A stretch of DNA of 64,000 nt from Bilabrum cf. latius (taxonomy: Eukaryota). The notes beneath the pieces were generated by a model that had not been told where the DNA came from, made no database searches, and was given only the letters and a program-made list of their open reading frames with translations. Of this stretch, positions 25,976 through 49,493 are shown piece after piece. Made by a program: the position numbers and the translations under genes. Position 1 is the first letter of the stretch; each line of letters begins with the position of its first letter. The stretch lies in assembly GCA_965178125.1 (NCBI GenBank), contig OZ237766.1, positions 372,001 to 436,000 of the forward strand, written 5' to 3'.

Positions 25976-27643
25976 TCACCGAAGTACCCCGAACACCCGC
26001 TCCGCCAGCGCTCCCACCACTCGGGGCGAGCACGCCGCCTTCACCTCTGCCTCATGGCCCGCAGCCCAACCAGGCAGCTCCACGCCCCCTGTACCACCAG
26101 GCACTGCACCACCATGCACTGCACCACCACTATGAGCTGGCTCTGTTTGCTCATGCACCCATTTGTCGTCATCACTTGCAGCTGCCCCAGTCCCTCCAGT
26201 GCTTTCCCCTGCCCCTGCCCCTGCCCCTGCTCTTGCTGTAGACCCAGGCTCACCGCCACTGCTGGGCCCACGTGCCATAGACTTCGCTCGTTCCTGTGTG
26301 TCTACCACCTTTCGCTCCCTGGCCAGCCGAGCAATCGACGCTGGCCCCTGGATGGTAGGGGCAGTAGCTGGGGGCGGGAATGCCGGCATCTCACGCGGCG
26401 GCAAGCCCTATGTTCCGCAAGGGCGCGGCGCCTCCAGAAACCACGGATGCCGGAGTGCCTGCGCTGCAGTGACTCGCACGGCGGGATTCAGCTCCAGCAT
26501 GCGGCCGAGAAGGTCCATGCCCAAGTCTGACAGGAATCGATCCCCGGAGACGGCCCTAGCAGGCAAACCTACTGCCTGACGCAAGGGCACGGGGGGGTAC
26601 TACCTGTCTAGCCGGAGCGTTCTGACTCCGGGTAGCGACCGCCACTCCGGCCACTCGTCACCCTGGGGCAGGCCCCGCAGCGCAAGCACGAGGTTCGCCT
26701 GCTCCGTGTCAGTGCGCCCTGCCGCCATGGGCCTGCCCGTGAGAATCTCGGTGAATATGCAGCCCAGACTCCACACGTCCGATGCGGGCCCGTACTTAAC
26801 GGCTCCGAGTAGAAGCTCGGGTGACCTGTACCACCGGGTCACCACCTGCTTCCCCGCCGTGTAGGGAACGAGGCCGGGGGGCCCGATGGTGCGCCTCGTC
26901 ATCCCAAAGTCACACAGGACGGGGCGGCCGTCCGGAGCCAATAATACGTTCTGGGGTTTGAGGTCGCGGTGCATGAAGCCTCGAGAGTGTAGGTCATTCA
27001 GTCCCAGCAGCATCTGCCTGACGAGTTCCTTCGCCTGTGCGTGGGTGAAGGCGGGCGGGGACCCGGGGCGCTCAGCTGCCAACGCCGCGGAGAGGTCAGT
27101 GGGGCAGAAATCCATCGACATGTACACGTCCTAATGCGCCCCCATGGCCGAGCCAGGCTGCGCTAGGTGCACTGCGCTGCGGCGCATTTCCTCCGCGGAA
27201 GTTCCGCTGCTGGACTCTGCCGGGAGATCGACCGGCTCGCCCAGGAGCACCTCTCTGGCGCGGAGCAAGTTTTCGTGATGTACCGCGACCAGGGCCTGGA
27301 TCTCGCGCAAAGCGTACAGTGGGAAACCTTCTTCTGCCGATTGTCGCAGGAATTTCATTCGTTTTAGGGCAACGATCTCGCCCGTGTGCCTGTCTCGAGC
27401 CGCAAACACCTCGCCATAGGATCCCTCGCTAATTTTCGCAACTGGGTCGAAATCTTCGATTGACCGGCACCCATGCCACAGCGGAACATGCAAGAGAGAC
27501 GGTGGCATTGCTCCAACCAACTCTAGCACGGATTCAAACCCGCCAACATACTGGGACACAGCTGCTGATGGGCTTGCCGAGGTAGCTTTAGAAGACCCGC
27601 CCTGTTCTGACCAGTTCGGCCGCGCACGCTTGGTTGGTATCAT
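25976..27643 (-). CDS. Cyclin-dependent kinase, CDK11/CDK10 (PITSLRE)-like
   Basis: GCRSIEDF..ISEGSYGEV, VALKRMK, EGFPLYALREI, HRDLKPQN, DFG, VVTRWYRSPE, DVWSLG, ALRHPWF..EMPAFP. TAGs at 27131 and 26600 lie inside the kinase domain, with another at 26408; TGA stop at 25976. Confidence 0.9.
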
Positions 27644-27889
27644 AATGTCGGAGAATATGCGAACTTTTTCAGGGCAGATGCGGAGAATCCGTATATATCT
27701 AGGTGAGTTGCTGCTCAATCTGGAATATGCCTCACTTTGATTAGATTGATCGGAGTGCTCGCACGTTGGAGCGAAACTCGACCAACTGCAAGCCGATAGC
27801 CGAGCAGATTTGATCTGCTTCTTGTCGTAATAATACAATTTTTGTTAAAGCCTGTGGAGGTTCGCGTTTGCCAATAAAATTCTGTCGCT

Positions 27890-29884
27890 ATGGATCGGGC
27901 AGGACGGAAGCGAGGCAGAGACAAGCTCGGCACCGTAGGTACCGCAGAATCAAGCACTGGCGACCATTCTTCACGTCCTAGTATGATCTCAATGCCACAA
28001 ACGGACTCTCAGTTTCAGAAACGTGCACGCATCGATGGTCCAGGCGAAGGCTCAAGTCAAGGAGCTACTGCAGCTCAAAGAGCAGCACAAGCGGCGGCGC
28101 GCGCCGCCATCGCAGCGGCAGAAGCAGTACGAAGACATGGCACATATCAGCCCGCAGTAGACGCATTTGCCAGCAGCGAGGATGAAGACAATGAGACGGA
28201 CGAAGCTATACAAGCACTACTCGGGAGCAGGCGAGCGAAACCCAAGCCAAGAACAAAACGAAATTCGTAGACCGCAGCAAAGCGTAGAGGCCCAAGTGAA
28301 AGTAGCAGAAGACGCCGGTCCTAGGTAGATATGGATGACGAAGACGACTACATGCCGGACTATGACAGTGGCAGCGACACTGGCGGCAAGAGCGGGCGCT
28401 CAAAGGGAAAAAGCAAGGCGAAATCGAGTGCCAGGGCCTCCAAGTCGTCATTGAATAGCAGCAGCGTAGCAGCACAGTCCAGAGGCCGGAGGGGCAGCAA
28501 GCGAGCGCCGGCCTCTAAATCCAGAACTGGCAAGGCGGGCCGCAGGGGGCAGACCGGCGCCGCGCCATTCCCCACTGCGGAACTTCCTATGCCGACCCCC
28601 GAGGAGACCGGCGCCGCGGCACTGGCCGAAGCCGCCAAGGCCGCCTCACAGCGCATGGTGCTCCGATCCACCCGCCCGCTTGCTGTAACGCCCAAGGGCC
28701 TCCGTCAGTTTGTCGAGCACCCCGAGACTGGAGTGAGGTTATACCTGCAGAACACGATCAGCACGTTCAGCCTAGGGTGCACCCCCGACCTGGTGCACGT
28801 GGCCTCTAGGGTTAGGAACGCGGAGTACAATCCACGAAGGTTCGCTGCGGTGATCATCCGTCTGAAGGAACCCCGTTGCTCGGGCCTCGTGTTCGCCTCA
28901 GGCAAGTGCGTCATTGCAGGGGCCAAGAACGAGGAGGAGTCGAACTACGCCGCGAGAAAAATCGCCGGCCTGCTGAAGTTGGTGGGCTGCGACGTGCATT
29001 TCCGTGGTTTCCAGGTGCAGAACATGGTGGGCAGCGGGGACTTTGGATTTCCCGTGAGACTCGAGGCAGTAGCTGATTCCAACTAGCTGCAGTGCACCTA
29101 CGAGCCGGAATTGTTCCCCGGTCTGATCTACAGGATGGCTGGGGCACCCCATGCGGTTGCAACCATTTTCGTCTCTGGAAAAGTGAACATAACTTCCATC
29201 AAGAGCCGGACGGAGCTCCTACACGCCTTTGGCGTGGTGCACGCGATCGTGTTCCCCCACCGGAAGGTCCCTCTAGGCATGGCGGAGTTACCTAGCGGGC
29301 AGCTGGTTGTGGCTGCCGCACCCGCCGCAGAACCGCCCGCACTTGCTGGCGGTGGTCGTTGGAAGAAAAGCGCTGCTTCGTCATCTTCGAAGGCTGCACG
29401 AATGCTGCCCGCTCCAGCTCAGAGAGGGAAGGGGTGGGGTCTGCCGACTGGCACCGCGGCTGGCTCGCTGCAAGCTGCATCGCATGGTGGTACAGCGGGC
29501 AGTTCTTCCTCCCGGGAGTATGTCGGCTCCGCAGGGAGCGGCGGCGCTACGATGAGCAGCTCTGCTGGTGCACTGAACGGTGGTCTCGATGAGGAGTACG
29601 ACCCATTGGCCGCTATGCTTGGATTGAACGACGACGATGATGATGATGATGATCGTGCTGGGGGTGGTAGAAATAGAGGCAGTGATGGAAGAGCCAACGC
29701 GGAGACGTATCGGGAGGAGGATGGCGGTGGCAGTACAGTGGGTGGGGCTTCGCGGGCAGCGTCGGGGGCTGGCGGCACGGGAGCAGGTGGGCTGGGAGGC
29801 AGTGTGGCGGCTGGTCTGCTAGGGATGGATGACGGCGGGGAAGATGAGGATGAGGACGATGATTTGCTGGCTGGTTTGCGGTAA
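27890..29884 (+). CDS. TBP: TATA-box-binding protein (or TBP-related factor) with long N- and C-terminal extensions
   Basis: LQNTIST, NAEYNPRRFAAVIIR, LVFASGK, VQNMVGS, YEPELFPGLIYRM, IFVSGKV. TAG 29084 lies inside the second core repeat; further TAGs at 28268 and 28322; TAA stop. Confidence 0.92.
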
Positions 29885-30713: not shown

Positions 30714-33700
30714 TCAACCAACATGCCGCGCTCGAACCTGCGCGCCATACACAATCGGCGGTCGTTGGATGCGCTGCTGAAGTCGACCCCACTCATCATC
30801 ATGCACCTCGTGCGAATGCGATCTGATGTCATTGGCAGCCAGCCGCACCACTGGAATGGCCATTCGCCAGTAGTCATCCCCGGACACCACTCTCACCCCG
30901 GTCCTCTCAATCGCATGCTTGTCCAAGGGTTCAGCTGGCGAGAGCCACACAGGCACATGGGTCCATGTCTTGATGTGCTGCAAGTTGCTGGCTTGCCGAA
31001 GACTCGACAGCACAGATGGACGCCCGCCAGCCGAATCATCGTTCCACGAGGCCACCATGGCCTTGGCATCCACAAGGCCGCGTGTCTGCTTCTTGCCCGT
31101 CTTGGCTCGAGCCCGAATCACCACTGCCTCATCCGAGCCATCAGCAACGCAGACTGCAATCAAGTCGGCTTTTCGGCCGATGCAGGTCTCCTTCAGCACC
31201 GTGTTGAGTGGGATCTCGTCACCCTATACAGCGTCTACGCGCAGTCTTTCCAGGCGTACTTGGTCGCGCACCTGCTAGCCGTCTGGCCCAGTGTGAAGTA
31301 CCGACCGCATCCACGCATCGCAGTCCAGTCGCCGGAGCCCCATGGTGCCTTCCAGCCCGACTCTTTCTCCAAGCAGCCTCAGCCCGTTCAGAGCAAGCCC
31401 CTCGGCCGCGAGACCAAGGAACGGTTCTGCAGAAAAAAATGTTCGAGTGCCAAACACCCCAGCGCCCTCTAGAAGAGACAGGTTCGCGTGGACATCGTTC
31501 AGTTGTGCATTGACGATCCGAAAGACCATCTTCGAGCTGAACCGCACGTATCGAGTCGGTGGATCTGTCGTGGTGTCCATCTCGGTCACGATGTGCCCTC
31601 GCCCGGTGTAGTGGTCCAAAAACGAAAACACCAAGTCCTCATCCGATGGGTCCGTATCCACGCAAGAATCGAAGCTCTTCTGATCTAGCACCGGCTGTCG
31701 TAGGCTCTCCAGCACCTTTGCATCAGTCACCACAACGTGTGCCTTCACGAAATCATTTTCTGAGAGCTCAAACAGTTCATAGCCACGGGTGGTCCGAATC
31801 AGTTCGCGCACCAACCACCTGGCAAACACGATGAACTTTGGGCGCTTAAGATCATCATACAGCCTTTCAACAGTTAGCCCGTGGTGAGCGTTCCTACGAC
31901 CCCACAACAAATAGCGCGGATTGCCTCCCGTTGCATGCCTCAACTTCTCCACACGCTCCTCTCCATCCATCGCTTGCTTGTCCCAGTCCACTTCAGCTTC
32001 TCTCCACCTTTTCGCATCGTCTAGAGTGATGAGAAAACGCCAGCGACGTCGGATAGACTCACCCGTATCTGTGAGTGGGAATGGTGACAGAAAGCCGTGC
32101 TTTCGCAACAGAACAAGCCGGTCATCTTCGAGCATCCTCTTGGCAATTGCTCGAGAAATGGCAACTGCTGGCTCCTAATCAGACCCCTCATACCCCTACA
32201 AGCACATCAGCTGCGCTTCAGCCGTGACGGTCATGCGTTGAATCTCCTGCTTAGGGATGGCCCGGTAGAGCGCAGCGCCACCCACAACTTTGCTCTGCAG
32301 TAGTTCAGAAGTAGGATTCCAGTCACCGGTGAACCGCGCAAAAGTTGATCCCTCGTGCTCCACCATCGCATGCAGATGAAGCAGGAAGCGATCATTCACC
32401 TCCTGAGGCCCGCGGTTCAAGCTGCCCATCTCATCAATCAGTAGGGCTGGGATGAGTTGCTTGCCATGTTGCAGCCTGTAGCCATCGATCCAAATCTACA
32501 GCGCTGCTTGCCTTGCCTAGGCATCCATCTGGCATTTAATGTTGCACCAAGCAGGCAGCAAGCCGTCATCTCCAGTCAGGATGCCTCTTTCCTGCATGGC
32601 ATCTGCAATGTACGCATGCGGAACCATGCCCATCGGGGACCTGATCCGGATATACGCTGTGCAGATGATAGTGTCTGGGTTGGCAAACTCGATCATTGCC
32701 ATGATCTCGCGAATTGAAAACAGCAGCGGTGACTTTCCCGTGCCTGATGTTCCCATCAACAGCATGGTACTCAAGCGCTTTGATGGTTTCCCCGCCATGA
32801 TACGAATAATACCCTCAATCCCAGACAGTAAGATCTACTCACTTTGAGATCGACGGTCGCCGCACAGGACAAAGATGTGCTGCCACCATACGCCTGGTGC
32901 CAGCGCCCTAGCCTGCATGAACACGTAGTAGGCTTCCAGAACAGTCTTTGCGGCGGCGGAGAATCCTTGATCAGACGCTATTTTGGTAGGAGAGACCCGG
33001 CACGTATCGTAGATGAACTCGGAAAGGGTCTTGTTGCACCAAGTCCTGAAATTTGCCTCATCGGCTGCAGCGCACGTTTTCGCAATCTCCCCCGGTTTCC
33101 ATGTCTATATACTTGAGTTTAGCATGCTGGATGGATACTCGGCCGGCAGACCCACTTGTCTCATGGCGTCTAGTTTAGCCTACTAGACTGCTTGAAATGA
33201 GTCCTGGGCAGCCTGGTCTTCTCCAGCTTGCCACTGTCCCGCCCGGGTCTTCACCTTTGATTTCATGCGCTCTAGCAGCGTACTCCATTCACCATCCTGC
33301 GGTTCTGTCATTATCCATGTACTTCTGCCAACAATATGGTCGTTGAGGCCCACCTGCAGTCTTTTGCAGTCATAGTACGCCTTGGCCGATTGAAAGTATT
33401 TAACCGCGGCTTCATCCTGCAGCGCATCCAGAAGGCCAGCGGCACGCAGGCGCTGCATTCTTTCCAAATTGTCACTGGATCCATCGTGAACGAATGGATA
33501 CACGCTGGACTAACTATCAATTCCTCTTCGAATCCCCAGCGATGCTTCATGAGCATAGTAGTGGTGGGTGGTGCAGATTTGAATGGCATCGAAATGCGCC
33601 TGCTCAATGGCCGCTGCAACATCTTGCAGCTCTTTCGTTGATAAAGGTTCTTGCAGCATGAAGGCCTTTTCAAACTCATACGAGAATTTGCTGACATTTC

Positions 33701-34127
33701 CTTTGCGCCAACAGTCTCCCAGTTTCTGCAGCCAAAACGATATCGATTCGCTGTGGTCCGGGCTGCAGCTAGCTGCTCGTGTGGACAGCATGTATCGCCC
33801 CCGACTGGAATCGAGGCGTGAATGTGTAATAGAATACAGAATACTGACCAATGGAACCTAGCTTAAATCCTGCTTTATCACCGCTGGCGAAGTCCCGGTG
33901 CAGATGCCAGGTCTTGCAGAGCGTCGAAAACCACTGTGCAACACGCGAGCCCCGCCTCCCTCGATTGTGCGCCGAGCAAATCGACCAATCATACGACAAC
34001 CCTGACAATTTATAGTAATTCGAAAGTCTAAACGATACTTAGACAGTAGAATGATGTCAGAGAAGAACTGAGCATTCGTACAGTTCCTTGGCGCTGTGGC
34101 GAAGGTTCGCAGTGCTGATGAGTGCAT
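30714..34127 (-). CDS. P-loop NTPase plus probable PD-(D/E)xK nuclease (Crinkler/RHS-type architecture); 5' end uncertain
   Basis: Continuous frame through 12 TAGs to TGA 30714. Walker A LMGTSGTGKS, Walker B LLIDE, TGGNPRYL, and C-terminal KADLIAV...LVDAKA. Confidence 0.7.
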
Positions 34128-34140
34128 CCAAAAACAACAA

Positions 34141-35219
34141 TCAAATTGTTGGTTTCCTTAAAGTATTGACCTCGGCGTAACCGCTGCCAAAGTAGAACGG
34201 GATGTTAGAGGTATGGAATCGAATGTTCTCCATCAACTGTTCCCGCTCCATTGCATTCTTCTTCCAGTCCGGGTCATGCTCCCTCCACCGTTCCGCGTCC
34301 TTCATGGTGATTCGTATCGGACCGGTGGACACTGATGATTTACCTTTCTGCTACACCAGTAGGTACCAACTCAAGAAGCCGTGCTTTTGCAGCAAGACAA
34401 GCCGGTCGTCTTCTAGCATCCTCTTTGCGACGGCCTGGCAGATTGGCTTTTCATCTCGTTGATGGTACAAGTACGTCAGCAATGCCTGCAGAACCCTGTG
34501 ACTCCTCCTACTTATGTATCGTTCGATAGTGTAAGTCAGTTCCGATCGAGCTGCTGGAAAATAATTTGCTCGTGCCTGCCCACCTTCCCGTGAACCGTGC
34601 GATCGTAGACCCGTCGTGCTTTGCCATCGCACGGATGTGCAGAATGAAGCGTTTCTGTTTGTCCTCAGACTAGCGACTCATGATGTCGATAGCATCGATC
34701 AGCAAGAGCGGGATGACGCGTTTGCCCTTGGATCTGTACCAATCGTCAATCCATGCCTAGAAGGCTTCTTGCCTTGCGGTGGCATCCATCAGATTGCTGG
34801 CCCGGGGGTTGCACCAAGCAGGCAGGACTCCATCCTCGCCAGTCAGGATGCCTCTGCGAAACATGGCATGCGCAATGTGTGCCAGGGGAAGTACACCTCG
34901 AGCATTGCAGACATCCGCAGCACACATTATCACGTATGGGTTCGCATATTCGATCAGTGCCGCTGCGAGTCGAAGCGCTTGGAAGACGAACGACTTGCCG
35001 GTGCCGAACGTTGCCATCAGTAAGCACCGTGACAGTGTTCGGGCACTTCGATGGCCTGCCCGCCATGACCCGCAGCACTTCCTCGATGGCAGACAGGATT
35101 AACCGCTCCCTCTTGGATCGCGGGTCACCGGTTAGGACGAGTGCTTGGGACAGCGGGGTGGCCATGATGCGGTCTTTTTCTACGCGCAGCACTGAAGCCT
35201 GTTTGAGTACGTGGTGCAC
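34141..35219 (-). pseudogene. Decayed upstream paralogous copy of the NTPase module
   Basis: Shares RGILTG(E/D)DG(V/L)LPAWCN, IP.LLID, GST.ARFTG and KRMLEDDRLVLL.KHGFLS with the neighbouring gene. It has a frameshift before ATFGTGKS, further frameshifts and TGA stops. Confidence 0.75.
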
Positions 35220-35455
35220 TGCGACCCGATTCAGTTGCTAATGCGTCGAGGCTCATGCGGCATGTTGTTTTGATGAAATCAGAGGCTAACTTTCCACACA
35301 GGGTCCGGAAACCGGCTTCGTCAAAACTTTGAGGCGAGCTAAAGGGCCATGAACGTTCGATTGGAGCAATGTTTCAAAATGTTTTTTCCATGATGGCCAC
35401 ATCTGCAGTTTTCCTAACATAGGCCTTCTGCGTATAGACTTGTTTATTTTTATCT

Positions 35456-37765
35456 ATGGAGGACGGGCGAACAAGTAAAAGTAATGCAGAAAGTCCGACG
35501 CACCCTCTAATCAAGGATCAGACGAGTACTCGCAGCGCAGCGAAGGAGTCTTGCGATGGAAGTCGTGCCGGTTTGATTGGCTTTGGGGTTATAATATTGG
35601 TGGGATGTGGCGTGATTGCTTGGGCGCTTGCAACTGCGCAGTCTAGCGCTTCCAGTAGCTCATTCACGGCAGAACAACAGGCATGCACGGTATTCTGCAG
35701 TGGCCCGCTGCTGCGGCTCGTGCAAACTTCCGGTATTTTTAATGACTCTAAGGAATTTGTAGACATGCCGATGCGATCCAACCCAGTGGCGGTTTTATCA
35801 GACTTCAAGATCGACTTCCCTGAGCTGAACTCCGCGCGCGGTGTCCCACACGTGGAAGGCAATGGCATCAGCAAGGACAGGGTACAGTCTTTTTTGGAAA
35901 AGCACTTTCTGCTACCGGGTGGCGGGCTCGTCAGTGGTGGCACGCCTCCCGACTGGCAGAGCCAACCGAGCATAGCGGCAAGGCAACCGAACGCCACCGT
36001 GCGTGCCTTCGCCCTGGGAGCCAACGACGTGTGGAAGGTGCTCTACAGGGAAGTGAACAGCACGATGTTTCCCGACGGCAAGCCCTCCGCGAAATCCTCC
36101 CTAATCCCCCCAAGATTCCCTGTGATCGTGCCCGGCGAGCGATTCAGGGAGCAATACTACTGGGACACCTTGTGGATCGTCAGAGGTCTCGTTCGGTCAG
36201 GCATGAACGGCACAGCCAAGCACATGGTAGAAAACCTCATTGAATTCGTGGAAGAGTACGGGTTCGTGCCGAACGGCGGGCGCGTGTACTACTTGCAGCG
36301 GTCCCAGCCGCCCGTGCTGGCCCTGATGGTGGAGATGGTCGCAAGGATGCTCGCCGGTCGCACGATTAAACCGGAAGTAGGCAACCAGACCGAAGGCGTA
36401 GGATCGACGAGCGAGCATTAGCCCGAAGAAACTGGTTCGTGGGTTAGAACCGCCCTGGGTGCGCTTGAAAAAGAGTACGCTACTTTCATGGGACAGTCGG
36501 TATCGATCCCGGGAGTCTCATCCCTTCAGACGGACGGGGTTCCCATACCGACCGTGGCGCATGCCACCCACGCCGTCGATGTCCACATCAGCAGCCAGGA
36601 CCAGCTCACCTGCTCCGATCTATCCGGGAGGGAAGATGCCTCACGGGAATTCCAGCCCACAGCATTCCTGTTGAACAGGTACTCATCGCCCTCCCTCCGC
36701 CCCCGTCCGGAATCATATATCGAGGACGTGCGGGCGGCTGGAGATGCAGGGCTGGAGTGGAACGGCACTGCGGCGTCGGGATTGTACCGTGCCATTTCAA
36801 CGGGGGCCGAAACCGGATGGGACTTCTCCTCCCGGTGGCTGGGCCCGGCGGGCACGATGGACGGCTGCCACGCCGACTCGATCGTGCCCGTGGATCTCAA
36901 CACCATCATGCACAAGATGGAGACGGCCATGGCTAGGATGTACGAAGGTCTCGGTGACGAGGACAGTGTGACGAGGGCGGCGGTGCTGCGGAACAATGCG
37001 CGGCGCCGGGCAACCGCCATGGACTGCCTCATGTGGGACGAGGGCGCGGGGGCCTGGAGAGACCTCCGGATCAATGTGACGAGTGAGCCCAGCGGCAGCT
37101 CTACTTCCGGTTTTGGGCCTTTTGAAGCGCCTGCCTCGGGCGTGGTGCGGGCGAACCTGACCGGGCAGGTGACTGCCGGCAGAGCCGCCTCCGATTTCTT
37201 CCCGCTGTGGGGCGTCGGTGGCGACAGCGGAACCAGCGGCGGCGCCGCGCATTCAGTTTAGCTCGAGGCCGACGGCCTCGTCACGAACCGCACCCGCGTG
37301 GCCGCCGCAGTCTCTGGCTTGTTCCGGTCTGGCCTCCTAGGCCATGGGGGCGTGCTTACGACCACGCTCAGCACCGGTCAGCAGTGGGATGCCCCGAACA
37401 GCTGGCCCCCTGTGCTGCACGTGGTCGCGGCGGGGCTGTCGAGAGCCGCGAGTGTGATGAGTGCGCAGACTGATGGGGTGCGGTTGGGAGGTGTGACGAG
37501 TGCGCAGGCCGGCGCGTGCGCTAGGGAGCTCAGCAGGCGTTACCTGTCCTCTGCTGCCTGCGCCTGGAGGGCGACGGGGTATTTGTTCGAGAAATACGAC
37601 GCGCTTGTTCCCTGCCAAGGGGGTGGCGGGGGCGAGTATGTCCCCCAGAGGGGGTTCGGGTGGACCCTGGGGGTTGCCCTTGACTTGCTGGGGTCCTACA
37701 GGTGGGACTCGCTGGAGGAACAAGGTGCCAGCAATGGAGGTGGGCCCGCTTGTGTGGGGTCATAA
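35456..37765 (+). CDS. Alpha,alpha-trehalase (GH37) with N-terminal transmembrane anchor
   Basis: DSKEFVDM, VPGERFREQYYWD, PNGGRVYYLQRSQPP, PRPESY, AETGWDFSSRW, PVDLN, QQWDAPNSWPP, EKYDA, GGGGEY..QRGFGWT. TAGs at 36419 and 37259; TAA stop. Confidence 0.95.
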
Positions 37766-37807
37766 AAAATAGGATTTTTCAGTTGGATCGATCGGATCAA
37801 AAAAGCT

Positions 37808-39903
37808 TCATCCCTGCTTGACCATCAGGCCTCCATCTTGCTGGGACAGTGCCCGAGCTTTCTCCTCCTACTCATCCTCGGCATTTCTACTGCCCTCACC
37901 ATGCGTATCGCCTTCCTACTCACCGCCACCATCCCCAGCGTCGCTTGCCCCAGAGCCTGTGCTGACGATCGCCTCCGAGGTGGACGTGGTGGTGGTGGTC
38001 ACCTCAACTCCGCCCCCATCACTCGTCACACTAATATCACCGCTTTCACCACCCGCTGCAGCGCCCTCCTGTACTGCCTCTCCCTCTCCGCCGCCCGCTT
38101 CCACACCCGCACCCTCGTCCTGTTGTCCTGAATCAGACTCCACCGGTGGAGCGAAGTTCTTCTTCCGCTCCGCTAGCCCCACCCTCACGTTTCCCCTGTC
38201 AAACACCGCGATGTATCTTCTCATGAACATGTCGCCCAGCACGTACAGCGGCCCCTTGGGAGCAGGCACGTCCAAGGCCATGAAGCCGGGCCTGCAGGAA
38301 ACGACAGAGCCGGTCGCTTCATCCCTGTCCACGATGATGTAGTCCTCGGGGGCCAAATCGAAGCTCCTGCCGCCAATCTTGTAGGACAGCGTGGGCTGTT
38401 CCCCGATGTTAGAGCAATCGTCATCCAGGTGGATCCTTCGTAGCAGGTCCCGCACCACTGCCGATGGCATGGTGTTGAAGCTCGTGCCCGTGTCCACGGC
38501 CATCCTGCACCCCGCCTCGCCGATGTCGTGCTCTGGCCCATCCCGCTCCACCCCCGCCTCCAAGTGCCTCTGGTACTCGGCCTCGCTTAGGCCCACTCCC
38601 CCCAGCGCGTCCTGCTCCTCGGTGGGGGACGGTGCCTCGCCAGTGCGACGCTCCGATCGCACTCGAGCCGACAGCTGCGCCAAAGACACGGGAGGTTCCG
38701 CATCGCGCGGCGCCAGCGCATCACCGAGACGATTGCCTCGGAGCGACATCTTGGAGCCGTGTGACGAGTGCGCTGGGCCGCCTTGGGCGCTTCTGCTCCT
38801 GGCGCCGCGCCCCTGCACCTGGGCGAACTCGGGCCAGTCCAGCGAACCTTCGCTGCCTCCGCCCACCAGGTCCTATCCAAACCCCTACCCATACTACCCA
38901 TCCTCTCCTACCCCATTCCCCTACCCCAAATCTTGTTCCTCCAGATCCAGGTCACCCACGGCGGGCATTGGCGGCAACAGGTCGCTGGGCAGGCCCCCGC
39001 CCTCACCCCCACACAGCTGCATGGGCCTCCCGTCCACCTCCAGATCCTCCAGCACGATCTCCCAGTAAAACTCGCGGCGGACGGGGGCCCACAGGAGCTC
39101 GCCGGAATATGATTCCGGGTCCGGCCTGCCGAGCACGATCTCGCTGGCCTCGCCGTTCTGCTCGTCTCCCAGCACGTAGGTGAACATCGGTTCCGGGAGC
39201 AGCTGCTGGGCCATAATGTTATCAAACACAGGGGTGAAATCGTACGCCGACAGAGCGGGGAACGCCATGCCCAGAATACCCGAGAATTCAGGCGTGTTGA
39301 AGACCTGGCCGGACTGAAGCGTCATCTCGCCAAAGCTCTGGCCTTTGATCTCCACGCTGCCCAATCGAACCACATCCTCTGCTATAAATCCCTCAATCTA
39401 GCCCGTCCCAAACTTTACCTCAATGTCGTAGCCTACCCGCTTGTACGTGCTGCTCTTTGACGAATCGAACGACTTGTGCGTGCTGCACTCGAAGCTATCG
39501 CACGAGGCAGACGTTACCCATGTATTGCTCGAGCCGGTGTCCATCGCCATGCGCAATGTTTGAGGAGGCGTGCCTACACTAATTTCCCCAATGTATTGCG
39601 TCTGCGAAACTTTACAAGCGGCATTTGTGCGCTGAATGCAGTAACTATGCTGTGCATCCGACCCAGGCTATTTAATGCCACATGTTACCTTACATTTCGT
39701 ATATTAGATAACGGCAGAAACACACGCTGGTGTCCAGCCTATACCAGTGCATGGTTTGGCGCAAGATGCCTGTGCAGTGACCGCGCGTGTGCTTCATCGG
39801 CTCTATGCTTTACCATCTCCAGCTTTGGACTACCACCCATAGCCTCATGACCTACAAATATCAACAATAAAGCTAACAAGCAAGGAAGTAGTTTAATCTG
39901 CAT
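37808..39903 (-). CDS. Secreted A1 (pepsin-family) aspartic protease, intron at 39602-39693
   Basis: Signal peptide MQIKLLPCLLALLL. Splicing gives LPLSNIRN|TQYIGEISVGTPPQ. Catalytic MDTGSS and VDTGTS; GILGMAF; LGDMFMRRY..FDR. Eight TAGs; TGA stop at 37808. Confidence 0.92.
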
Positions 39904-40014
39904 TCTAATATTGCTCGGTTCTGTCCTTTAAAGAAACCGAGAGCCAGCTCGGCATGCACTCGTCACATATTGCCCACCGCCCAAAAATTGCACGAGTACT
40001 TTTAGCGAAGTACC

Positions 40015-40788
40015 ATGACTCTTGCGATATTGTTGCTTCTTGCTGCAACTATACATGCAAGAAGCTTGCATCGCCAGCGATCTACGGTTCATGAATCGAT
40101 TAAGTCGAGTTCCTTGAGAGCCAACCGGCATCGGGATGGCCCATCCCACATCACATGGTTCAACAGCGCCTGGGGCAAGAAGTGCGGGAAGAAGGTATCT
40201 CGTGATTTTACGGTATACCACAACACGGGTGTCGGACAGTTTGGGATCGGGAAGGGTTTCAGCGTGAGGCCATTTATCCCATCTGGTACTTCTCTCGTAC
40301 GCTGAGGGTCATGACAGCCAAAACCGTGCTTACATCTATTTTGGTCGCAGGTTGCTGTATACAGAGACTCTACTAGCGGGATGCCGAATCTCTGCCGGTA
40401 TGCGTACGGCACGTTTGGCCCCATCAGCGTGGCCGGCGTCACGTCGACGTTCACGGCCGTCGACGGCCGTAAGGTGTCGGAGCGATATTTCAAGGCAGAG
40501 AGGAGATCTGACGGCGAGGACGATTATAAGATATCTATCCCGGTCCTGTTCAAGCCAAAGAACGCCGAAAAGTACCTAAAGCCGGAGCGAGACGTCCTGT
40601 CCCAGAACCTCAGACTCCGAGGCAGCCAGCAGGACATGGAGGGGCTGCTGCAGGCCGTGCTGGACGCAAAGGATAGCAACCAGCTGGAATTGTCGCAGCA
40701 GGGCAATTTTTACGTGCAGTACCTGCCCACAGCGGCAGAGTAGACTTTGTGGGCCGTGTTTCCCTTCCTCAGGAGGCACGATGCGTGA
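40015..40788 (+). CDS. Unknown secreted protein, probable intron at 40297-40350
   Basis: Signal-like MTLAILLLLAATIHA. A phase-0 GT..CAG intron removes an in-frame TGA and joins ORF 40381-40743. TAG at 40741; TGA at 40786. Confidence 0.55.
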
Positions 40789-41208
40789 GGCATAACACAC
40801 TGAGTGGATATGAATCCAGCTTCAGCGCGCGTCCCCGTGTGGAGATCACTGGGGCCACCCAGTGGTTGGGCCTGGTTGGTATGGATTCGGATGCGTGTGG
40901 AAGGGGGTCAACCGCTGGGCGTGGCGGGCTGCCAGCGGCTCCACTGCCAGTGGCGGTGGACCAAACCTTGCCTCGAGCTCGTTCGTATTCGGGATCTCCG
41001 TTTGAATTTTGGTAAGCCCAGGTCTAGAATGTACCTCATCATTCATAGTGTACCTCTTTCTAATGATGAGGCTCATGCTGAAGGGGTCCTCGTGTAGATC
41101 TTGTCCTATCTTCATCTTCGTGTGCTATATGGGCCCAATCATCATGATCATTTCTAGCCAAACGATATCTTCTTGCACCCGTTGATCTTGTACACCAAAG
41201 TTTATAGG

Positions 41209-44200
41209 ATGGATTCCGTAGGTGACCTTGCAGAGCGGATTCGGGCATGCGGTGCATTTAAACTCGACGCCGAGAACGATCACGTTGTTGAGGCGCATGA
41301 AGCCTGTTACCGGTGCCTCTGCGATTTTCTTCGTCTTAAAGAGACTGACTGTCTCTCTGTAGAGGCAACTGTAATATGTTTGTTACAAGCTGCGCGTTTT
41401 GCCTAGGAATGTGTGCACGAGCCCGGCATGAAGTATGGAGAACTCCGAGAACTGGTTGCTCGAGTTCACAAGGGCCCAGAGCACACCACATCTAGCCAAT
41501 GCAATAACGCCACTGTAGCAGGCGTCATCTGGTGCGCCGGCTGGTTGCTGTCTCCCCTGAACAGAGAATACGAGATCGAGAACCCAGTTGCGGTTGAGAC
41601 AATCGCGAAGCATGGAAGGAGGTCCATTCGTCGAGGCGAGAGGCACTTCGTTAGCAAGTATGAAAAAGTTTCAATCTTGCATGTTTGCGCTGCGATGGGT
41701 TTCGCATCTGCTTGTGCTCTGCTGCTCGACCTGGGAGCATTCCTCGATCCAGACGCCGATCTGCCGGACCGGCCGCCAGACAAAAACGGTGAATTGACGA
41801 AACTATGCGGAGCCCGGTCAAACCCCACACCGCTGCAACTGGCTATATACTACCGGCAGCACGACGCAGCAGCCGTGTTGCTGCAGCGAGGGGCGCGAAC
41901 CGTGGGTTTGGAGGAATTCTCGACTGGCTTGGAGATTGCGGCCATCTCGACAAGCCTGGCGAGCCACAGTAGCAAGCCAGATGATACTCGCGGTGCAGCA
42001 TCATCAAGTGCAGACAGTGGCTAGAAGAAATAGTCATCTGGTAGTGGCTATCGCCGAGAGCTTGCGCATTTCGATACTACTCTGCCCGCAATGGACAGGA
42101 AACTAGCGCACACTGTGCAAGTCGGTGCGAGGAATATATCAATCGAAGCAGTTGCTCGGCGCTCGATGCTCGCACTGATCCTGGCCACAGCAGAGATCGG
42201 CAACTTGGCCATCGAGCAGGATGCCGAAAAGCTAGCCCGCCCCTGCCGCGCCAGCGTGGAGTCGCCAGGGCCACACGACTCCCGGCGCCGATTCGATGAT
42301 GACCGAGGCCATCACTACGGCGAGTTCGGCTGCTTCTCCCCCCAGCCAGCCAGCGCCTCACTTTGCCCACCATGGAAAGCATCGACACCGAGCACTGTTC
42401 CAGTGGCTGGCTCCGATAGGATCAGTACGAATAACTATCCCGAACGCCAGCAGCAGATCCGCTACCGCCAGCTGATGAGGCACGTGGAGTACCTGCAAGA
42501 AGGACTCGGAATTGAATATGCGCCTGGGAGGCTGACCAGAGGCACAAAAGCGGGGTACTTTGCAAATGAGATCGGGCGGGGGTGGGAAGTCGAGAACGGG
42601 TTCGATGTGCTTGCTCCCGGCTACGAATCGTGGCTGACTAAGCAGAACATGAGGGGTGCAGTGCCAATGCACTATTGTCCGTCTAGCATATGGACGAGTC
42701 TGGCTATCGCAGCGATCGCCAGGAGGCAGCGGTTGGATCCTGAGGCTGCGAATGCAAGGATCGCCGGGCTGAGCCACGGGCGGCACGACCAGCCTGAGGT
42801 CGTTTCATCGGAAGTCCACGAGACCGTAGCACACCTAAAGCTGGAACAAAAAAGGTTGGCGGGTGTGCTGGCCCGGGTCATCGACCAGATGAACGAGACG
42901 GTTAGTGCAAACACCAGCACGACAAACGCAGCCAGTGGCGATTTGCAGGTTGATGAGCCAGCAGGCTCGGACGAGGCGCTGCCGACGAGGACGTTCCATA
43001 GGCCAAACGGTATATTCTCGCTGCTGGTGCGATGTGCGGCGTCATCGGGCACCCAGTCGAGTCGTGCACGCGGCCCCAAGCCGCACCACACCCCTGCAGA
43101 GTCCGAGGCGTGCCCACTTATCGACCACTGTCAGGAAGTCGAATTCGATCTCAACACTGGTCGCAGCAAATCCATGCAAGCGAACACCGAGGATTAGATC
43201 GGCCCATAGCTGCTTGATGCGGCGGTGTCCATGCAGGCGCACGAGATCGCGAGCGGGCAGGTCGCATGCATCCGACTGACCAACTTCGTCCGAAGTGCAG
43301 ATGGACCACCACGGATGGATACAGGAAAGGTGATGGAAGTGCTCGGAGTGACGATTAATACCGACTCCATTCCGATGGTCACCCCCTTCGGTCCCAAACC
43401 AGTAGCGAAAATGTACTCGTTTCGGCACCAGCGGCGCATGAAAGGGCAGGACATTCAGAGGGTGGCATCATAGGTCCGGTCGATTTCGAAGGCTGGAATA
43501 CACATGAAGCTATCCGAATCAGGCACAGGCTTTGGGCCTGGCTCCAGTACGCGCCGCATTACCTCGATTGGGCATGCGACTGCAGCGAGTTCGGCCGTTC
43601 CTGGGAGGCCCTTGCCTAGGCCACCCCTGCGTCAGGACCAGGACCAAGTTGCGGAAGCCACCGAGCTCCTCATGGAGCGGGCCACCGCACTCGTCACACA
43701 GCTCGCAGACATCCTCGACGACGTTAACGGGGAAGCAGGAAGTGCAATGGAGGGAGGGTCGCCGCCACCCGTCCCTTCCGTCGCTGAAGTTGACGCGAGA
43801 CTGCGGAAGGCGATGGAGCCACTCGAGGCACTGGTTCACGGCATGACGCGAGGATCAGACCGTGGTATGACGAGTGATGAGGGGACCAGCAGCAGCTCAA
43901 CAAGCTCGGATCGGAAAGCATTCATCCCGGCTGCAGGCGCAGGCGCGGGCACGGAGCCAAGCGACGTCTCCCACAGCCTTCCTGTCCGGCCACCTGGATG
44001 GATCGTGCAAGCTGCCCAGGCGCTTTTGGCCGCCGCCAAGGAGTCGAGCGCACTCGTCACAGCCCATGCCGCGCTCCAGGGCGTGCTCCGCATCAGGGGC
44101 ACCAGCCGGATGCATCCCGACTCGGCGGACGATCAAGAGCGGCGGACAGGGCTACTTCAGGGAGACGGCGCCCCCGCGGATTTAAGAAGCGTGCCATCAA

Positions 44201-45897
44201 GCCTAGGAGAAGAAGCCTCTAGTGCCAAACGAGGCAGCGAATAGCCAGCCCCGTCATCTTGGTCCAAGAGGCAGCCTGCTTGCGCCGTGGGAAGGGTGCT
44301 GTGTGCACAGTGGTCATCGCTCGACTAGCACGGGCCAGTTCGTTCAATGGTGGAGCGAAGTTCAGGCTAGTTTAATCCAGTTGATGGCTGCTTGCTTCGG
44401 ATGATGGCCAGCGCACCCGAGGCTGGAGAAGTGAAGGATCACCCCCCTGTGAGGTTGGCACCGCTGAGGCACTTCCGTACGCTGATGGCAGACGCTGATG
44501 GTAGATAGGATGCTGGTGTGACGAGTGAGTTAGACGCGAGGAATCCGGAGGATGAACCAGGGGAACTCAAGGCTGCCGGCACGGGCTTGGATCTGGCTGC
44601 GCATGCAGAGCGATAGTAGGAGGCGTTCGTGGCTCCAAGGCATCGCGCTGCAGTGCATCGGATCCTGCAACCGGCAGCAGGCACACCCAGTCACGTCTTA
44701 GATTCATTAGCCGACATGAAGATGCTAGGGACTACGGACTCGTTCTACGTAGCTTTGCTGCAAGCCAGGGACAGTGATGCACTGAGGCACGCAGCCACCA
44801 TGGCGCTGCCGGTTGCATGCCAGGACAGGGGTCTGGATGCCGTTGTGGCTCTGCTCGCTGCCGGAGCACATGCAGATGCGGCGTTCGAGCCTGCTAATCA
44901 GAACGTCGGCAGGGCGATACTGCTCGCTGCTTCCAGCTACCAAAGAGACCCAGAGGCTGCACTCGACAAGGTGCTGTTTTTGCTCATGCGCGGCGCGAAG
45001 CTCCGAGGATCCTTCAAGTCATGTTCTCCACCCCGATGCTTCATCAACATGCATCGCACTGCAGTAGCGGTGGCGGTCGCGCGCGGCAGGGCAGGGATCA
45101 CACCCGAGACGGCGCACGCGGTTTCGTTGCAGCGACCTGACGCGCATCAAGATTTGCACACTTCTGCCCGGGCCGCTGGTGGCGCCGGTGGTGGGTCTGG
45201 ATCAACCGATCAAGACTACGATTTGATTCTTATGACTAGGCTGCAGGGCGTCGTCGACAATGCCCTTGCTCGCCTCCCGATCGACCCCGAGCAGGTGCTT
45301 CACGACGTGCAGAAAGCGAGCACGACGGTGCATGACGCGTTCTGCTACGGGGCTAACGCTAGCGTAAGGAAATGGAGGCATGTGAAGGCTCCATAGTACC
45401 GCGAATCGATCCTGAGATGGGCCATGGATGGCATGTACGGCTAGGACTACATCTGGCTGCCAAAGGAGTACACTGGTCTTGATCACGGCGGCATACAGGA
45501 TTGCTCGCACGTTAGAGGTCCAAACTAGGCCGAGCCAATGGAGCGCCGGCGCCGAGGTGCTCTGATGAAAGTTGCCAGAGATGCTAGCTCTGTCCGGGCA
45601 GCAGTCGAGTTGCTTCGATCGGAAGTCGCCCCCCCACCACCGGTGCCAACCTGGCTGTTTGCTGGACTCAGTCACAAAGGGGAGGACGACTAGATCAGGG
45701 TGATGATTGAGGAGGCCTATCGCACCGATCGAGATCGGTACCAGAGGTGCGTCCATGCGATGGGTCGTTGGAGCGGGAAGCGGTTCTGGCATCGGGGTCG
45801 GGACGATCGGGCGAGGAGGCTGGTGGAATTCAGGAACGCCGTTTCGGTGGCTATTGCAGCGAGGAGGTCGATCTAGCGTAAAGCTGTTGGAGTTTGA
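41209..45897 (+). CDS. Ankyrin-repeat-containing protein, about 1560 aa
   Basis: Single frame with 17 TAGs and no TAA/TGA until TGA 45895. Ankyrin segments: SILHVCAAMG..ACALLLDLGA, TPLQLAI..AAAVLLQRGA, VVALLAAGA, FLLMRGA. Confidence 0.85.
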
Positions 45898-46004
45898 GGC
45901 GACCCTTGTGACTCAATTGCGTGCGGATTCTGAGGTCTTCTCCAGGTGAGGTAGCTGTGATCGGATCATCTCCAGCGTGAGGCATCACACATGCTGCGCG
46001 TCAC

Positions 46005-49000
46005 ATGTTTTACAAATTCATGCAAGGCATCGCAGCTGCATGCGTCGTTGGAGCGGTGTTTACTTTAAACATAGGTGCAAATGATGTTACCGTCCACAAT
46101 TACCAATCAACTATCAGCTACAACACCTCGGCAGTCAGGCTAAGCAAGGTTTCGTCGACTACTGCAACTGCGACGTTTAATGGCAGTATGGTCCAGACAT
46201 AGGTCGAAGTAAGGGACATTTTCTGCTTTGAAACCTAATGAAATGCTGTTTGCGCGAGTACCTTTGCGCTGAACTTCGTATGTGGCTTGCTTATCCATGG
46301 ATCGCAGATTGTCGAGGCTGACGATGCCAGCCGATGCAAAGTGTGCTATCTATGGGCGGCAGTCACGATGCCACCTGCAACAAACTTAACATTTGATATA
46401 AATGACAGCAGCAATGAAGTCTCAAAACCTTCTTTGTCGGCGCACAAGCCCAAGGAAATCTTGCAAGCAACGGGGACTGCCGTGCCATCTCAAGGCCACG
46501 TGCAAGTTGCCGTCGCAAAGGACGGACAATCTATCATGTTATCGAACTCCCATGTACAGATTCGCGTTGCGGGAGGAGACGCCCAGCGAATCTATGCCGA
46601 ATAGATCTACCAGAGTAGTCGAGCAGCAGCAGCACTCGTACAGCCCCCTGCCCCGCTCCTCTCCATCCAACCACGAGGCGGCGCCGCGCAATCCGAAGCG
46701 GAACATGCAACCGCCACCCTGGGCGGCTCCTCATGGTCCATCTCAAACACGTCCACGTTTCATTCCCTCTCCGTGTCAGTGGACGCCAGCGGACCCATCG
46801 TGGGCCAGGTCACGCAGACCTTCACCTTCACCAGCGCCGTGCCGCCCAGCCAGGATGGGATCGACGGCGGGCCGGCGAAACGAGGTGGAACTACGCAAGC
46901 GGTGCTCGTGTGGCGACTGGAGGCCGGGGACAACTTCGCGAGGGTGCACTCGTCACACAACCTGGGCGACAACTCGTCCCTGCTGTTCGATCTCTCAGCG
47001 GGGTTCGATCCCAGGAGCGCCGTCATGGATGCATTCTCGTACGCCAAGACGAAAACCACCGTCCCGACAGGAGCCAACCAGAGAGTGTCGGTCCCTCTGA
47101 AGCCGGACGACCGACTCGGAGCCGTATTGGGGTACGCCTACCCCAAGTGGACCCAAGGAGCAGACGCGAGGTGGTCAATCGCGGCCACCGACGGGAAGAT
47201 CACGGTGGCAGCGATTGCCGCCCGGTTGGGAGCTTGGGACTGGCCCATACGGAAATCGCTGGTGCTGGATCGCGTGCAGGCAGATCTGGCCACGGGACTC
47301 ACAGACAATTCGGGCAGAAACAAGCTTTGGCTGCACCAGCCGATGCGCGTGGGCGCACGGTACTTCCTGCTGTACGCGGGGGATGCAGACGGCGCTACCA
47401 CGTCTGCTTTCCAGTCAATGCTCATGGCCAGGGAACAACAGAGGCTGGACAAGATGTAGAACGAGTACATTCTTGAGTTCCCGTCAGCTGCTGACTCAGA
47501 GGGTGGCCAAACTGTAAAGGTCGAGTCGGGTGGTGACACGTTCTCCTGCCCGTTTTTCTACGATAACACCGCCACCAACCCAACGGGCCAGCTGAGGCAG
47601 TACGGCAAGCACCTCATCGAAGGCATACAGAAAGGGCAGTTGCCACCCGCCAACCGGGCCACTCTCATGGCAATGCAGTGCTATTTGGACCCCGACTGGT
47701 TCTCGGGCTACCTGCACGGCACCTCACCCGAGAACGCGAATTTCTACACCGACTACGTGCGTGTCCCTGTGGCTTTGTCAATGGGTCTGACCACTCACCC
47801 AAAGTTCAAGTCGGATCTGTTGCCAATGGTCAAAGGCGCTTTCGAAATGGACCTGACCCACAGCATCACCTTGCCATCGGGTGCAAGTCAGGAGGCACCA
47901 GGGTACATGAACCACGCGTTCGAGGGTTGGTTTGACGAGGCACCGCTGCTGAAGAAGTACTGGGGCGGGTATGACGCAGCCAAAGCGGCGGGAGGCAGGC
48001 TCAGTGCAGCTGCTGGGTTCCCCTTTCAGATATCACAGCCGTTCGCATGGCACTTTCTGGGTAAAGCGGCCGGCGATCCAGGTTCGTGGGATGGCAGATG
48101 GATGCTGCCCACTGGTGACACACACCCGGACGAATCCAACCTGACAATGATCCAGGGGCTCGTGCAGAGCATCGGGTACAAGCCACCTCCCGTACAGGCC
48201 CTGAAAACAATGGACGTCGTTGGATTCGGTCACATGCTCAGGGACCGAGTGGGCACGATGGACGAGTCTTTCGTTGGCTTCAAGAGCTATCCCCATCGGG
48301 GTCACTTCCACGGTGACTAGCTGAGCATTCATTACTGCGCGTACGGCATGCGGCTGTCCATTGACATCCAGGCGGGTTACAAGCCGAGGCCACCTGAGGA
48401 GTCCTGGCACAGCAAGGCGCTTGTCGATTCCTCGCGGTGGACGAGCGTGAACATGGATGGGTATGAGAGGGCACTGGGGATGTCAACGTCATCACTGGGC
48501 GATGCAGCTGTGGGTGAGGTGTCATCCAATCGGCTCAGGTACCTGCCGGGCAATCCCAACGACAACGTGTGGCAGGCCGTGTGGCCGACCAGGGAGCTGT
48601 CGGATGATATCACCTACCGTCGCACGGTAGTACTGGTGCGTGGCACGGATCAAAGTTCCGCAGTACACTCGTCATCATCCTCGGGACTAAGAACCTACGT
48701 CGTCTTGAGAGACCAGATGACCTTTCCGAATGGTGCCATCTCCAATGCCAGCGTCACCAACGTCTTCCTGCAGATGTCCAAGCAGACCTCGAGAATCGTC
48801 AACGGATCCATTGCAGACATGGGAAACGGCACTGCATTCACGTTCAGCCCGGCTTGGAACGCATCGTGCGATGCATCCCGGAGCTATTCGCTCCCCTGGG
48901 GGTGCTTTACGAACGAGAGCTCCCCGGTGCAGTACCATTTCGACCGCTGGGACTGGCCATCAGAGGGCAACGAATTCGCAACGGCGGCGCGGCCTACCTT

Positions 49001-49493
49001 CCAGATCGGGCCAAACCAGACGGCCGTGGAAATGTACACGCTACTGTATCCTGGTGGTTCGCTGGTGGATGGGCACCCGGCTCCGGCCATGTGGCAAGTG
49101 TCGGACGAGTCCACCGGTGGACTGGGCATAGCGGTTGCGACCGCCCCAGATGCCTCCGCAGACATTTTGATGTTCTACTAGCCCGGGGCCATCGGGCCTG
49201 CCTTTGCCTCTTGGTCTAGCTCTTCCGGTGCGTCTGCAGCCAGCCGCAGCAGCAGCGATGGCGATAGCGAATAGTTCAGGAGCAGCGGGTCCAAACCACT
49301 CGTCACACTAACAAGGCAGGGCAAGACAACACCGCTACTGACGACTGCTGACGTCAGCTACGGGTCATCGCAGGGCGAGGTGGGTCCACTTGTGCTGGGG
49401 GCCGGGTACGATTTCGGGCCCATTCCAACTGACCAGCTGGCGGAACAGCTCAAGTATCAGGCGGCCTATGAATGGCCTCCCAAATCGCTTTGA
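46005..49493 (+). CDS. Secreted heparinase II/III-like (polysaccharide-lyase-type) protein, intron at 46209-46307
   Basis: Signal-like N-terminus. LPSGASQEAPGY, LPTGDTH and GHFHGD*LSIHY..G..LSID...WH resemble heparinase II/III-family motifs. Six TAGs; TGA at 49491. Confidence 0.7.

Follow-up and report, generated by a model that had tools for sequence, protein, structure and literature searches.

The window analysed here, a 64-kb stretch of DNA (positions 372,001 to 436,000 of contig OZ237766.1, forward strand, in assembly GCA_965178125.1, filed under Bilabrum cf. latius; ~58% G+C), carries long gene-like open reading frames (ORFs) with in-frame TAG codons, and raises the question of what UAG means in the organism from which it came. 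A first-pass annotation, made from the letters alone, had proposed that TAG most likely encodes Gln, as the best fit and not as a proof, and independent column and likelihood tests agree with it. UAG is an ordinary sense codon in the window, far beyond chance, and UAA and UGA terminate; judged from aligned residues, UAG probably specifies Gln. The support for Gln is the best but not overwhelming, and Glu stays a live rival. Positions given below are those of the window, and the features are collected in Table 1.

TAG as a sense codon in the window

With standard stop codons the window held 25 ORFs of at least 250 amino acids, the longest of 1047; when TAG was read through, 39 such ORFs of up to 2624 amino acids tiled the window with little overlap. 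Reading TAA as Gln lengthened hardly any ORF, and reading TGA as Trp gave 83 ORFs that overlapped on both strands, as expected because the DNA is G+C-rich. ORFs of at least 500 amino acids numbered 4 with NCBI table 11, 4 with TAA as Gln and 17 with TAG as Gln. When only TAA and TGA served as delimiters, the window resolved into 20 gene-like ORFs without overlap, the longest of 2637 codons, with 117 in-frame TAGs, of which at least one (39668) is intronic and two (41095 and 41155) probably lie outside coding sequence. Across 19 of these 20 ORFs TAG made up 116 of 17,128 codons (0.68%), at a similar frequency in all frames; the same ORFs contained 392 CAG and 200 CAA codons, and TAG would be ~16% of Gln codons if it means Gln. 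TGA was the main terminator, closing 13 of 18 ORFs with TAA closing the other 5, although the restriction to these two codons follows from delimiting the ORFs by TAA and TGA. Translation past late TAGs was shown by homology for one gene alone, a polysaccharide-lyase-like gene, in which homology persists beyond the last two TAGs to a C-terminus common with the homologues, and the gene ends at TGA exactly where the homologues end.

With TAG translated as X, Pfam matches were obtained for CLU, SAM methyltransferase, PhyH, Dus, WD40, CDK-like kinase, TBP, trehalase (E 2e-106), aspartic protease (E 2e-78), TALE homeobox and TPR. Pfam domains and PDB alignments span the TAGs in the aspartic protease, TBP and kinase genes; in the trehalase gene the TAGs fall in unaligned inserts between conserved blocks, and homology resumes past both. 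On the strength of these matches we regard the genes as real and eukaryotic. The TAG-free Dus protein was placed as eukaryotic and no more finely. The source of the window is a GC-rich, gene-dense eukaryote whose introns are few and short.

The stretch was also found in 8 sequencing runs from 4 studies, none of them on record as RNA, and contigs from four of the runs (X5 to X8, 3 studies) were compared with positions 30001-50000. Contigs of X5, X6 and X7 join across three GT..AG stretches (39602-39693 on the minus strand, 40264-40350 and 46209-46307), canonical introns of 87-99 nt, and are read as spliced transcripts, the RNA nature of these runs being guessed. X5-X7 cover the TAGs of 35414-49691 and X8 those of 30846-36458, every piece with 0 differences from the window. 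The matches of X5-X7 take in the trehalase gene (35414-37614 in a window-identical contig), the aspartic protease gene with all its TAGs, the Ank-like gene and the lyase gene. Being spliced and identical to the window, the X5-X7 contigs indicate that TAG is not edited away, and since they run through a TAG-rich insert of the protease gene, that insert is not an intron. All runs compared were identical to the window in their contigs, and they offered no TAG-versus-codon variation. With the introns placed, the lyase and aspartic protease gene models are each extended by an exon 1 whose start is signal-like and which adds one TAG.

Residues aligned with TAG

The most informative position is TAG 48318 in the lyase gene, for which an exhaustive protein search returned 147 homologues. 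The column holding this TAG reads Q 62, E 26, A 5, H 3, D 3, S 2, G 1 and P 1 among 103 homologues in the phmmer alignment, with Q in 14 of the 14 best homologue matches, and conservation at each of the flanking H, D, L and H is 87-94%. The family profile matched the PL15 lyase 3A0O (E 0.0035), the HGDQ of which aligned with Q at the place of TAG 48318. The first-pass annotation had compared this site, GHFHGDxLS, with an HxHxDQ(L/N)S pattern of heparinase II/III proteins, and the comparison is borne out by the Q-rich column and by the remote structure. Its family assignment stands at the level of fold, and Pfam made no such call: the lyase protein alone gave no PDB match and no Pfam match at E <= 1, and for Hepar_II_III_C (PF07940) one of 11 homologues scored 20.7 bits against a 24-bit cut-off. 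An AF2 model of the protein (pLDDT 79.9, pTM 0.85) retrieved Alg17c (E 2.5e-11), heparinase III, Atu3025 and heparinase II with Foldseek, all at probability 1.00; the lyase is thus predicted to have the helical toroid and beta-sandwich fold common to PL12, PL15, PL17 and PL21 lyases. The family column of TAG 47457 is variable (V 11, T 9, N 9, L 7, ..., Q 3, E 2; n=59), as are the remaining lyase TAG columns.

The closest relative of the lyase is known only as ORF pieces, which are consecutive along the window protein and stand in a row on shared contigs (12201 and 6193 nt). Opposite the two window TAGs that could be aligned, at columns 384 and 671, it carries Q. Its pieces P0152 and P0083 stop before window Gln 444 (CAG), and the next piece begins 12 residues on; at column 444 Q accounts for 6 of 59 residues, and E is not among the eight commonest. 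As a control, the ends of 9 distant lyase fragments precede P, F, H, Q, L, K, P, I and V. A metagenome scan returned no relative of the lyase protein.

A similar pattern of broken ORFs was seen for the CLU-domain gene, for which 23 fragments were found from relatives at 30-86% identity, several per contig. P0162 stops before CLU column 458 and is followed downstream by P0175 on the same contig, indicating an internal break. P0160 stops before column 510, at a stop or at the contig end. P0156, from a relative 70% identical, stops exactly at window TAG605. Three relatives also have fragment ends at columns 443/444, which suggest an intron in common or a split codon and carried no weight as TAG sites. 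In a MAFFT alignment of the TAG cluster, column 616 showed mixed charged residues. Scans of genome contigs and viral contigs gave no relative of the CLU piece. Taken from the protein ends, the relatives appear to share the trait of genes cut by in-frame stops.

Two paralogue pairs within the window allowed TAG to be compared with TAG. The pair of NTPase modules is 49% identical and a pair of TPR genes 26%, and most TAG columns in them are therefore uninformative: the residues opposite TAG read T, TAG, G, Q, Y, E and R in the NTPase pair and E, TAG, F, V, F and E in the TPR pair, where E, V and F had been noted before. From the TAG frequency of 0.68%, ~0.03 TAG-TAG columns would be expected per pair by chance; one was seen in each, in agreement with the earlier observation of a TAG kept at the same place in ARQEAFxAWID/ARQAALxIWID and in LHMNxSKK/FRTGxASV. 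Together with the CLU site there are three TAG-TAG columns (32496; 56955/62425; 510), kept across 26-70% protein identity. The annotation had also drawn on YRTIHKxE and YRAIPKQE, in which TAG faces CAG. The codons are as quoted, with CTA at 34508-34510 and CTG at 32247-32249 on the plus strand (TAG and CAG on the minus strand), but the argument is weaker than it looks: the TAG-bearing copy, which adjoins the intact gene and matches it in pieces of 46-49% identity, is broken and is likely a decaying duplicate, and the TAG-versus-CAG column could therefore be pseudogene decay. A search with the NTPase protein gave only 3 weak fragments.

Three further comparisons made in the annotation proved weak, although the motifs themselves are present. 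GAGIAxNL, likened to an armadillo pattern, does have TAG on the plus strand at 6333-6335, as GHFHGDxLS does at 48318-48320; the Ala/Gly-rich ORF that holds it has no Pfam match at E <= 1, and look-alike motifs in that ORF carry Q, H and Y at the place of TAG (AALQSI, GALHNL and AALYNV). SNxLQCTYEPE of TBP had been aligned with HQQFSSYEPE of the human protein, and its TAG meets G in alignments to yeast TBP; DRxYPP of the CDK-like kinase had been likened to CDK10, and its TAG meets Q in Pho85, E in CDK11B and V in a Cryptosporidium CDK.

Weighing Gln against other meanings

A test of conserved columns comprised 1064 well-populated columns, called conserved when one residue reached at least 60%, and 12 TAG or break sites, among which the CLU 443/444 ends were counted even though they were given no weight as TAG sites. 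Conserved columns numbered 9 for Q, 15 for E, 36 for L, 12 for Y, 16 for S, 14 for T and 7 for K. The Q-conserved columns hold 3 of the 12 sites (P = 1.3e-4) and the E-conserved columns 1 (P = 0.16); L-, Y-, K-, S- and T-conserved columns hold none. Two of the three Q-column sites rest on the protein ends of relatives.

Likelihoods were computed on exchange frequencies observed in the same alignments. With 21 sites, Q was best, followed by T (-3.05), E (-4.04), S (-4.11) and L (-12). Calibration draws returned the true residue in 121-150 cases of 150, and Q won by at least 3 in 0 of 2850 draws in which another residue was true. When sites were combined (28-36 sites), Q came first by 2.5-8.9 units under the empirical model and led E by 0.5-3.3 units under BLOSUM62, with L 17-33 and Y 9-21 log units behind; with 33 sites Q was best in both models, and overall it came first in 9 of 10 runs of 21-36 sites. 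Pfam scores were also recomputed with TAG as each of the 20 residues in three domains and as 8 residues in two more. The sums relative to X were +3.7 bits for K, +3.3 for Q, +3.1 for S, +2.9 for E, -1.5 for Y and -2.8 for L, a scan that tells polar residues from hydrophobic ones without resolving Q from E, K and S. A classifier based on residues flanking TAG was uncalibrated, recovering true Q in 18 of 100 draws, and was dropped. The mix of partners (conserved Gln, acidic, basic and small polar) is what Gln, a neutral polar residue, exchanges with.

Several observations weigh against Gln, and the acidic partners among them speak for UAG as Glu, read by a tRNA(CUA) derived from tRNA-Glu, a reading that we consider unlikely. 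CLU TAG311 meets E within an identical flank and D, D and D elsewhere; TAG595 meets E and E, including E in the 70%-identical relative; lyase TAG958 meets D in the closest relative, in which P0003 also stops before window Asp 652 (GAC) and P0002 begins 4 residues on. P0169, from the closest CLU relative, stops before the Glu-dominant column 402, with P0156 following on the same 1435-nt contig, and with Glu at the break it would read the family consensus FAFDQE exactly. E occupies 26 of 103 places in the HGDx column, and over the 21 sites Glu is found as a partner at 2.9 times background and Gln at 1.1 times. The lead of Q in likelihood leans partly on the broad exchange profile of Gln; under BLOSUM62, in which E trails narrowly, E and Q tie once the three Q-conserved sites are removed (E +0.3). 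The column test used thresholds chosen with the data in view, on a small sample, and the breaks in relatives were placed from protein ends, where a codon other than TAG, an intron or the end of a contig may be responsible. A Glu codon would, however, be unexpected in an Arg/Lys-type column such as CLU625 (R in 4 of 6 in the MAFFT alignment) and at three Gln-conserved columns; against one site on 15 Glu-conserved columns there are three on 9 Gln-conserved ones. At TAG 48318 the 14 closest lyase homologues carry Q without exception, and in the lyase break columns Q outnumbers E both at 444 and at 652 (R 28, D 21, Q 14, K 12, ..., E 4; n=99). The empirical likelihood, moreover, places E 4-10 units behind Q.

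Less probable still is that UAG stands for some other residue or for no single one (Ser, Lys or Thr; a near-cognate mix of Gln, Lys and Tyr; or a residue without another codon). TAG meets a wide variety of residues (Q, E, D, S, T, G and R): the TAG in the protease flap (FGTGxIEG) aligns with S, S, S, A and S in PDB alignments, that of TBP with G in five PDB alignments, all to yeast TBP, that of PhyH with G by Pfam, and NTPase TAG978 with T/S. S came second in some likelihood runs (-2.5 to -3.2), K topped the Pfam scan by 0.4 bit, and the three TAG-TAG columns across 26-70% identity exceed what is expected of a freely exchangeable synonymous codon with 16% of Gln codons. Yet no TAG or break site lies on the conserved S (16), T (14) or K (7) columns, a Lys codon would be unexpected opposite E, D, D and D, and Q won nine likelihood runs in ten; TAG is spread over all genes like an ordinary codon, and the published UAG reassignments are, in the cited passages, single-meaning (PMC5304391; PMC11687900). 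Leu or Tyr, for which the same passages give precedents, would fit the hydrophobic partners in the most diverged pairs (F, V and F in TPR, Y in NTPase), but both fall so far behind Q in the likelihoods, score so poorly in the Pfam scan (L -2.8 and Y -1.5 against +3.3 bits for Q) and are so consistently avoided (0 of 12 sites on 36 Leu- or 12 Tyr-conserved columns) that we give them almost no credence. Equally slight is the chance that TAG is still a stop codon, its occurrences being due to pseudogenes, assembly error, RNA editing or occasional readthrough. One NTPase copy is truly broken, and X5-X7 are only guessed to be RNA; as a general explanation, however, it is refuted by the presence of 117 TAGs but no TAA or TGA in ~17,000 codons of 20 ORFs, by conserved domains that persist beyond TAGs, by X5-X8 contigs from 4 runs and 3 studies that span TAGs with 0 differences, by the splicing of X5-X7, which argues against editing and assembly error alike, and by independent relatives with the same broken-ORF pattern.

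If UAG is Gln, its decoding would call for a cytoplasmic tRNA(CUA) that descends from tRNA-Gln and is charged by GlnRS, and for a release factor eRF1 that has lost recognition of UAG. Most new TAGs would come from C-to-T change in CAG codons and would settle at weakly constrained, polar, surface positions, which would explain why most TAG columns are variable. The 64-kb window itself contains no tRNA gene, no Rfam family match and no eRF1 gene. TAG density falls with rising G+C content at third codon positions (GC3), from 11 in 774 codons in the CLU gene (GC3 0.49) and 10 in 570 in the Ala/Gly-rich ORF (0.59) to only 8 TAGs in the 2637-codon ORF (0.71).

Related codes and other features of the window

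A code in which UAG alone means Gln is already known elsewhere, and the window would be a further case; NCBI table 15 gives UAG the same meaning. The code shared by ciliates, dasycladaceans and hexamitids is table 6, and ciliates have a composition and gene structure unlike those of the window. In peritrichs and Blastocrithidia UAR is read as Glu, and Oligohymenophorea sp. PL0344 reportedly reads UAA as Lys and UAG as Glu. PL0344 resembles the window in giving UAG a meaning of its own and offers a precedent for the Glu rival; it differs in that UAA is also sense there, and the conserved columns of the window favour Gln.

According to the cited passages, the nuclear code of the fornicate Iotanema spirale reads UAG as Gln and UAA and UGA as stops (PMC5304391). 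As in the window, only UAG is reassigned, UAA and UGA terminating, and Gln was inferred there from conserved columns and a 20-residue likelihood, with E and K as runners-up where ours is E. The main terminator described for Iotanema is UAA, unlike the window with TGA at 13 and TAA at 5 of 18 ORF ends, and the window is in addition GC-rich, with canonical GT..AG introns of 87-99 nt. The phyllopharyngean ciliates Hartmannula sinica and Trochilia petrani are likewise described as reading UAG alone as Gln and using it widely in genes, and some phyllopharyngeans as having suppressor tRNA(CUA) genes (PMC11687900); they are ciliates, however, with UAA as the preferred stop in that account (PMC11687900). 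UAG is given as Leu in the rhizarian exLh and in uncultivated phyllopharyngeans (PMC5304391; PMC11687900), exLh having Leu at 82 of 86 hyperconserved UAG positions in the part of the report cited (PMC5304391). These resemble the window in that UAG is decoupled from UAA and in having been found, by the same accounts, in mixed or host-associated data, but Leu is rejected in the window. The ciliate, dasycladacean and hexamitid code, cited as UAA and UAG both meaning Gln (PMC11687900), agrees with the window on UAG and differs in UAA: TAA is not sense in the window, where reading it as Gln lengthens almost no ORF and 5 ORFs end at TAA.

Full-text literature searches, supplements aside, listed no non-ciliate that is G+C-rich, has UAG as a sense codon and terminates mainly at UGA. 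It is conceivable, and we put it forward tentatively, that the window organism and the several relatives with CLU and lyase genes likewise cut by in-frame stops in metagenome and run assemblies form an undescribed GC-rich, intron-poor, non-ciliate clade with an independent change of UAG to Gln and UGA as main terminator, unlike the UAG-only cases in the published passages cited (PMC5304391; PMC11687900). Codes in which UAG and UAA differ in meaning are rare; the cases listed there are one rhizarian, one fornicate and several lineages of ciliates, few in number (PMC5304391; PMC11687900). Such codes bear on the co-evolution of release factor and suppressor tRNA and on the mechanistic coupling of UAG and UAA, and a further lineage, GC-rich, with UGA as main stop and with relatives across environmental assemblies, would be a useful data point. 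Gene calling with the standard code cuts the genes of this organism into pieces, as in the fragmented database proteins of the relatives, and annotation, orthology and proteomics depend on the right code table.

Table 1. Positions in the window of the genes and codons discussed; x marks TAG in a motif, and column numbers are those of the window protein.
Feature	Position	Strand	Details
CLU-domain gene, runs off window start	3..2324	-	Pfam CLU; 11 TAGs
TAG, CLU column 605, shared with relative	510..512	-	P0156 ends exactly before column
CAG (Gln), CLU column 510, end of P0160	795..797	-	Q in 8/8
CAG (Gln), CLU column 458, end of P0162	951..953	-	Q in 7/9
GAG (Glu), CLU column 402, end of closest relative P0169	1119..1121	-	E in 7/10
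TAG, CLU column 311 (ALYPYxVAER)	1392..1394	-	relatives E, D, D, D
TAG in GAGIAxNL, Ala/Gly-rich ORF	6333..6335	+	without Pfam armadillo support (E <= 1)
CDK-like kinase gene	25979..27844	-	Pfam Pkinase spans 135-469; TAGs 27131, 26600, 26408
TBP gene	27878..29881	+	Pfam TBP; TAG 29084-29086 in second TBP repeat
NTPase-like gene (P-loop GTSGTGKS)	30717..34157	-	12 TAGs, including TAG 32496-32498 (ARQAALxIWID); CAG 32247-32249
Second NTPase module copy, frame-broken	34160..35340	-	stops, frame changes; includes TAG 34508-34510
Trehalase gene	35333..37762	+	Pfam Trehalase E 2e-106; TAGs 36419, 37259
Aspartic protease gene	37811..39911	-	intron 39602-39693; Pfam Asp; TAG 39398-39400 in flap FGTGxIEG
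Small gene	~40015-40790	+	signal-like start; 87-nt intron 40264-40350; one TAG near end; well covered in RNA-like runs
Polysaccharide-lyase-like gene, exon 2 and TGA stop	46308..49493	+	exon 1 ends 46208; intron 46209-46307; 5 TAGs in exon 2
TAG in LDKMxNEY	47457..47459	+	closest relative Q; family column variable
CAG (Gln 444) where closest relative's piece ends	47637..47639	+	P0152, P0083 end ..LIEQIQEG
GAC (Asp 652) where closest relative's next piece ends	48261..48263	+	P0003 ends ..RDKVGSM
TAG in GHFHGDxLS	48318..48320	+	homologue column Q-rich
TPR paralogue 1	55371..57842	-	TAG 56955 pairs with TAG 62425
TPR paralogue 2	61915-63999	+	TAG 62425

The small gene listed in Table 1 was missed by the list of long ORFs and overlaps the start of the 'Ank' ORF; the two TAGs at that end of the 'Ank' ORF therefore probably lie outside coding sequence. 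An 8425-nt spliced X5 contig (41168-49691, plus strand) reads through the Ank-like gene and past the TGA stop of that gene into the lyase gene, all of which it covers, and represents either overlapping transcripts or one shared transcript, between which the contigs cannot decide. The Ank-like protein had no homologue in the protein search and no relative in the metagenome scan.

Repeats of several kinds were also present. Perfect hexamer arrays at 55441-55606 (GCACCA, x 27.7) and 63628-63765 (GCTGGT, x 23) encode poly(Gly-Ala) near the C-termini of the TPR paralogues, and are 100% perfect although the paralogues are 26% identical. Near-perfect tandem repeats, which gave no TAG-versus-codon contrast, lie at 3713-3964 (83 bp x 3), 58708-59013 (153 bp x 2) and 59609-59965 (179 bp x 2), the latter two in or beside an ORF of no family. 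A dispersed repeat occurs twice in the window (29900-30570 and 60760-61790), inverted and 82-89% alike as translated. It is intergenic and looks like a high-copy element. Its depth in the sequencing runs is ~100-1000, where other parts show 2-170, and variants and internal joints are numerous in it.

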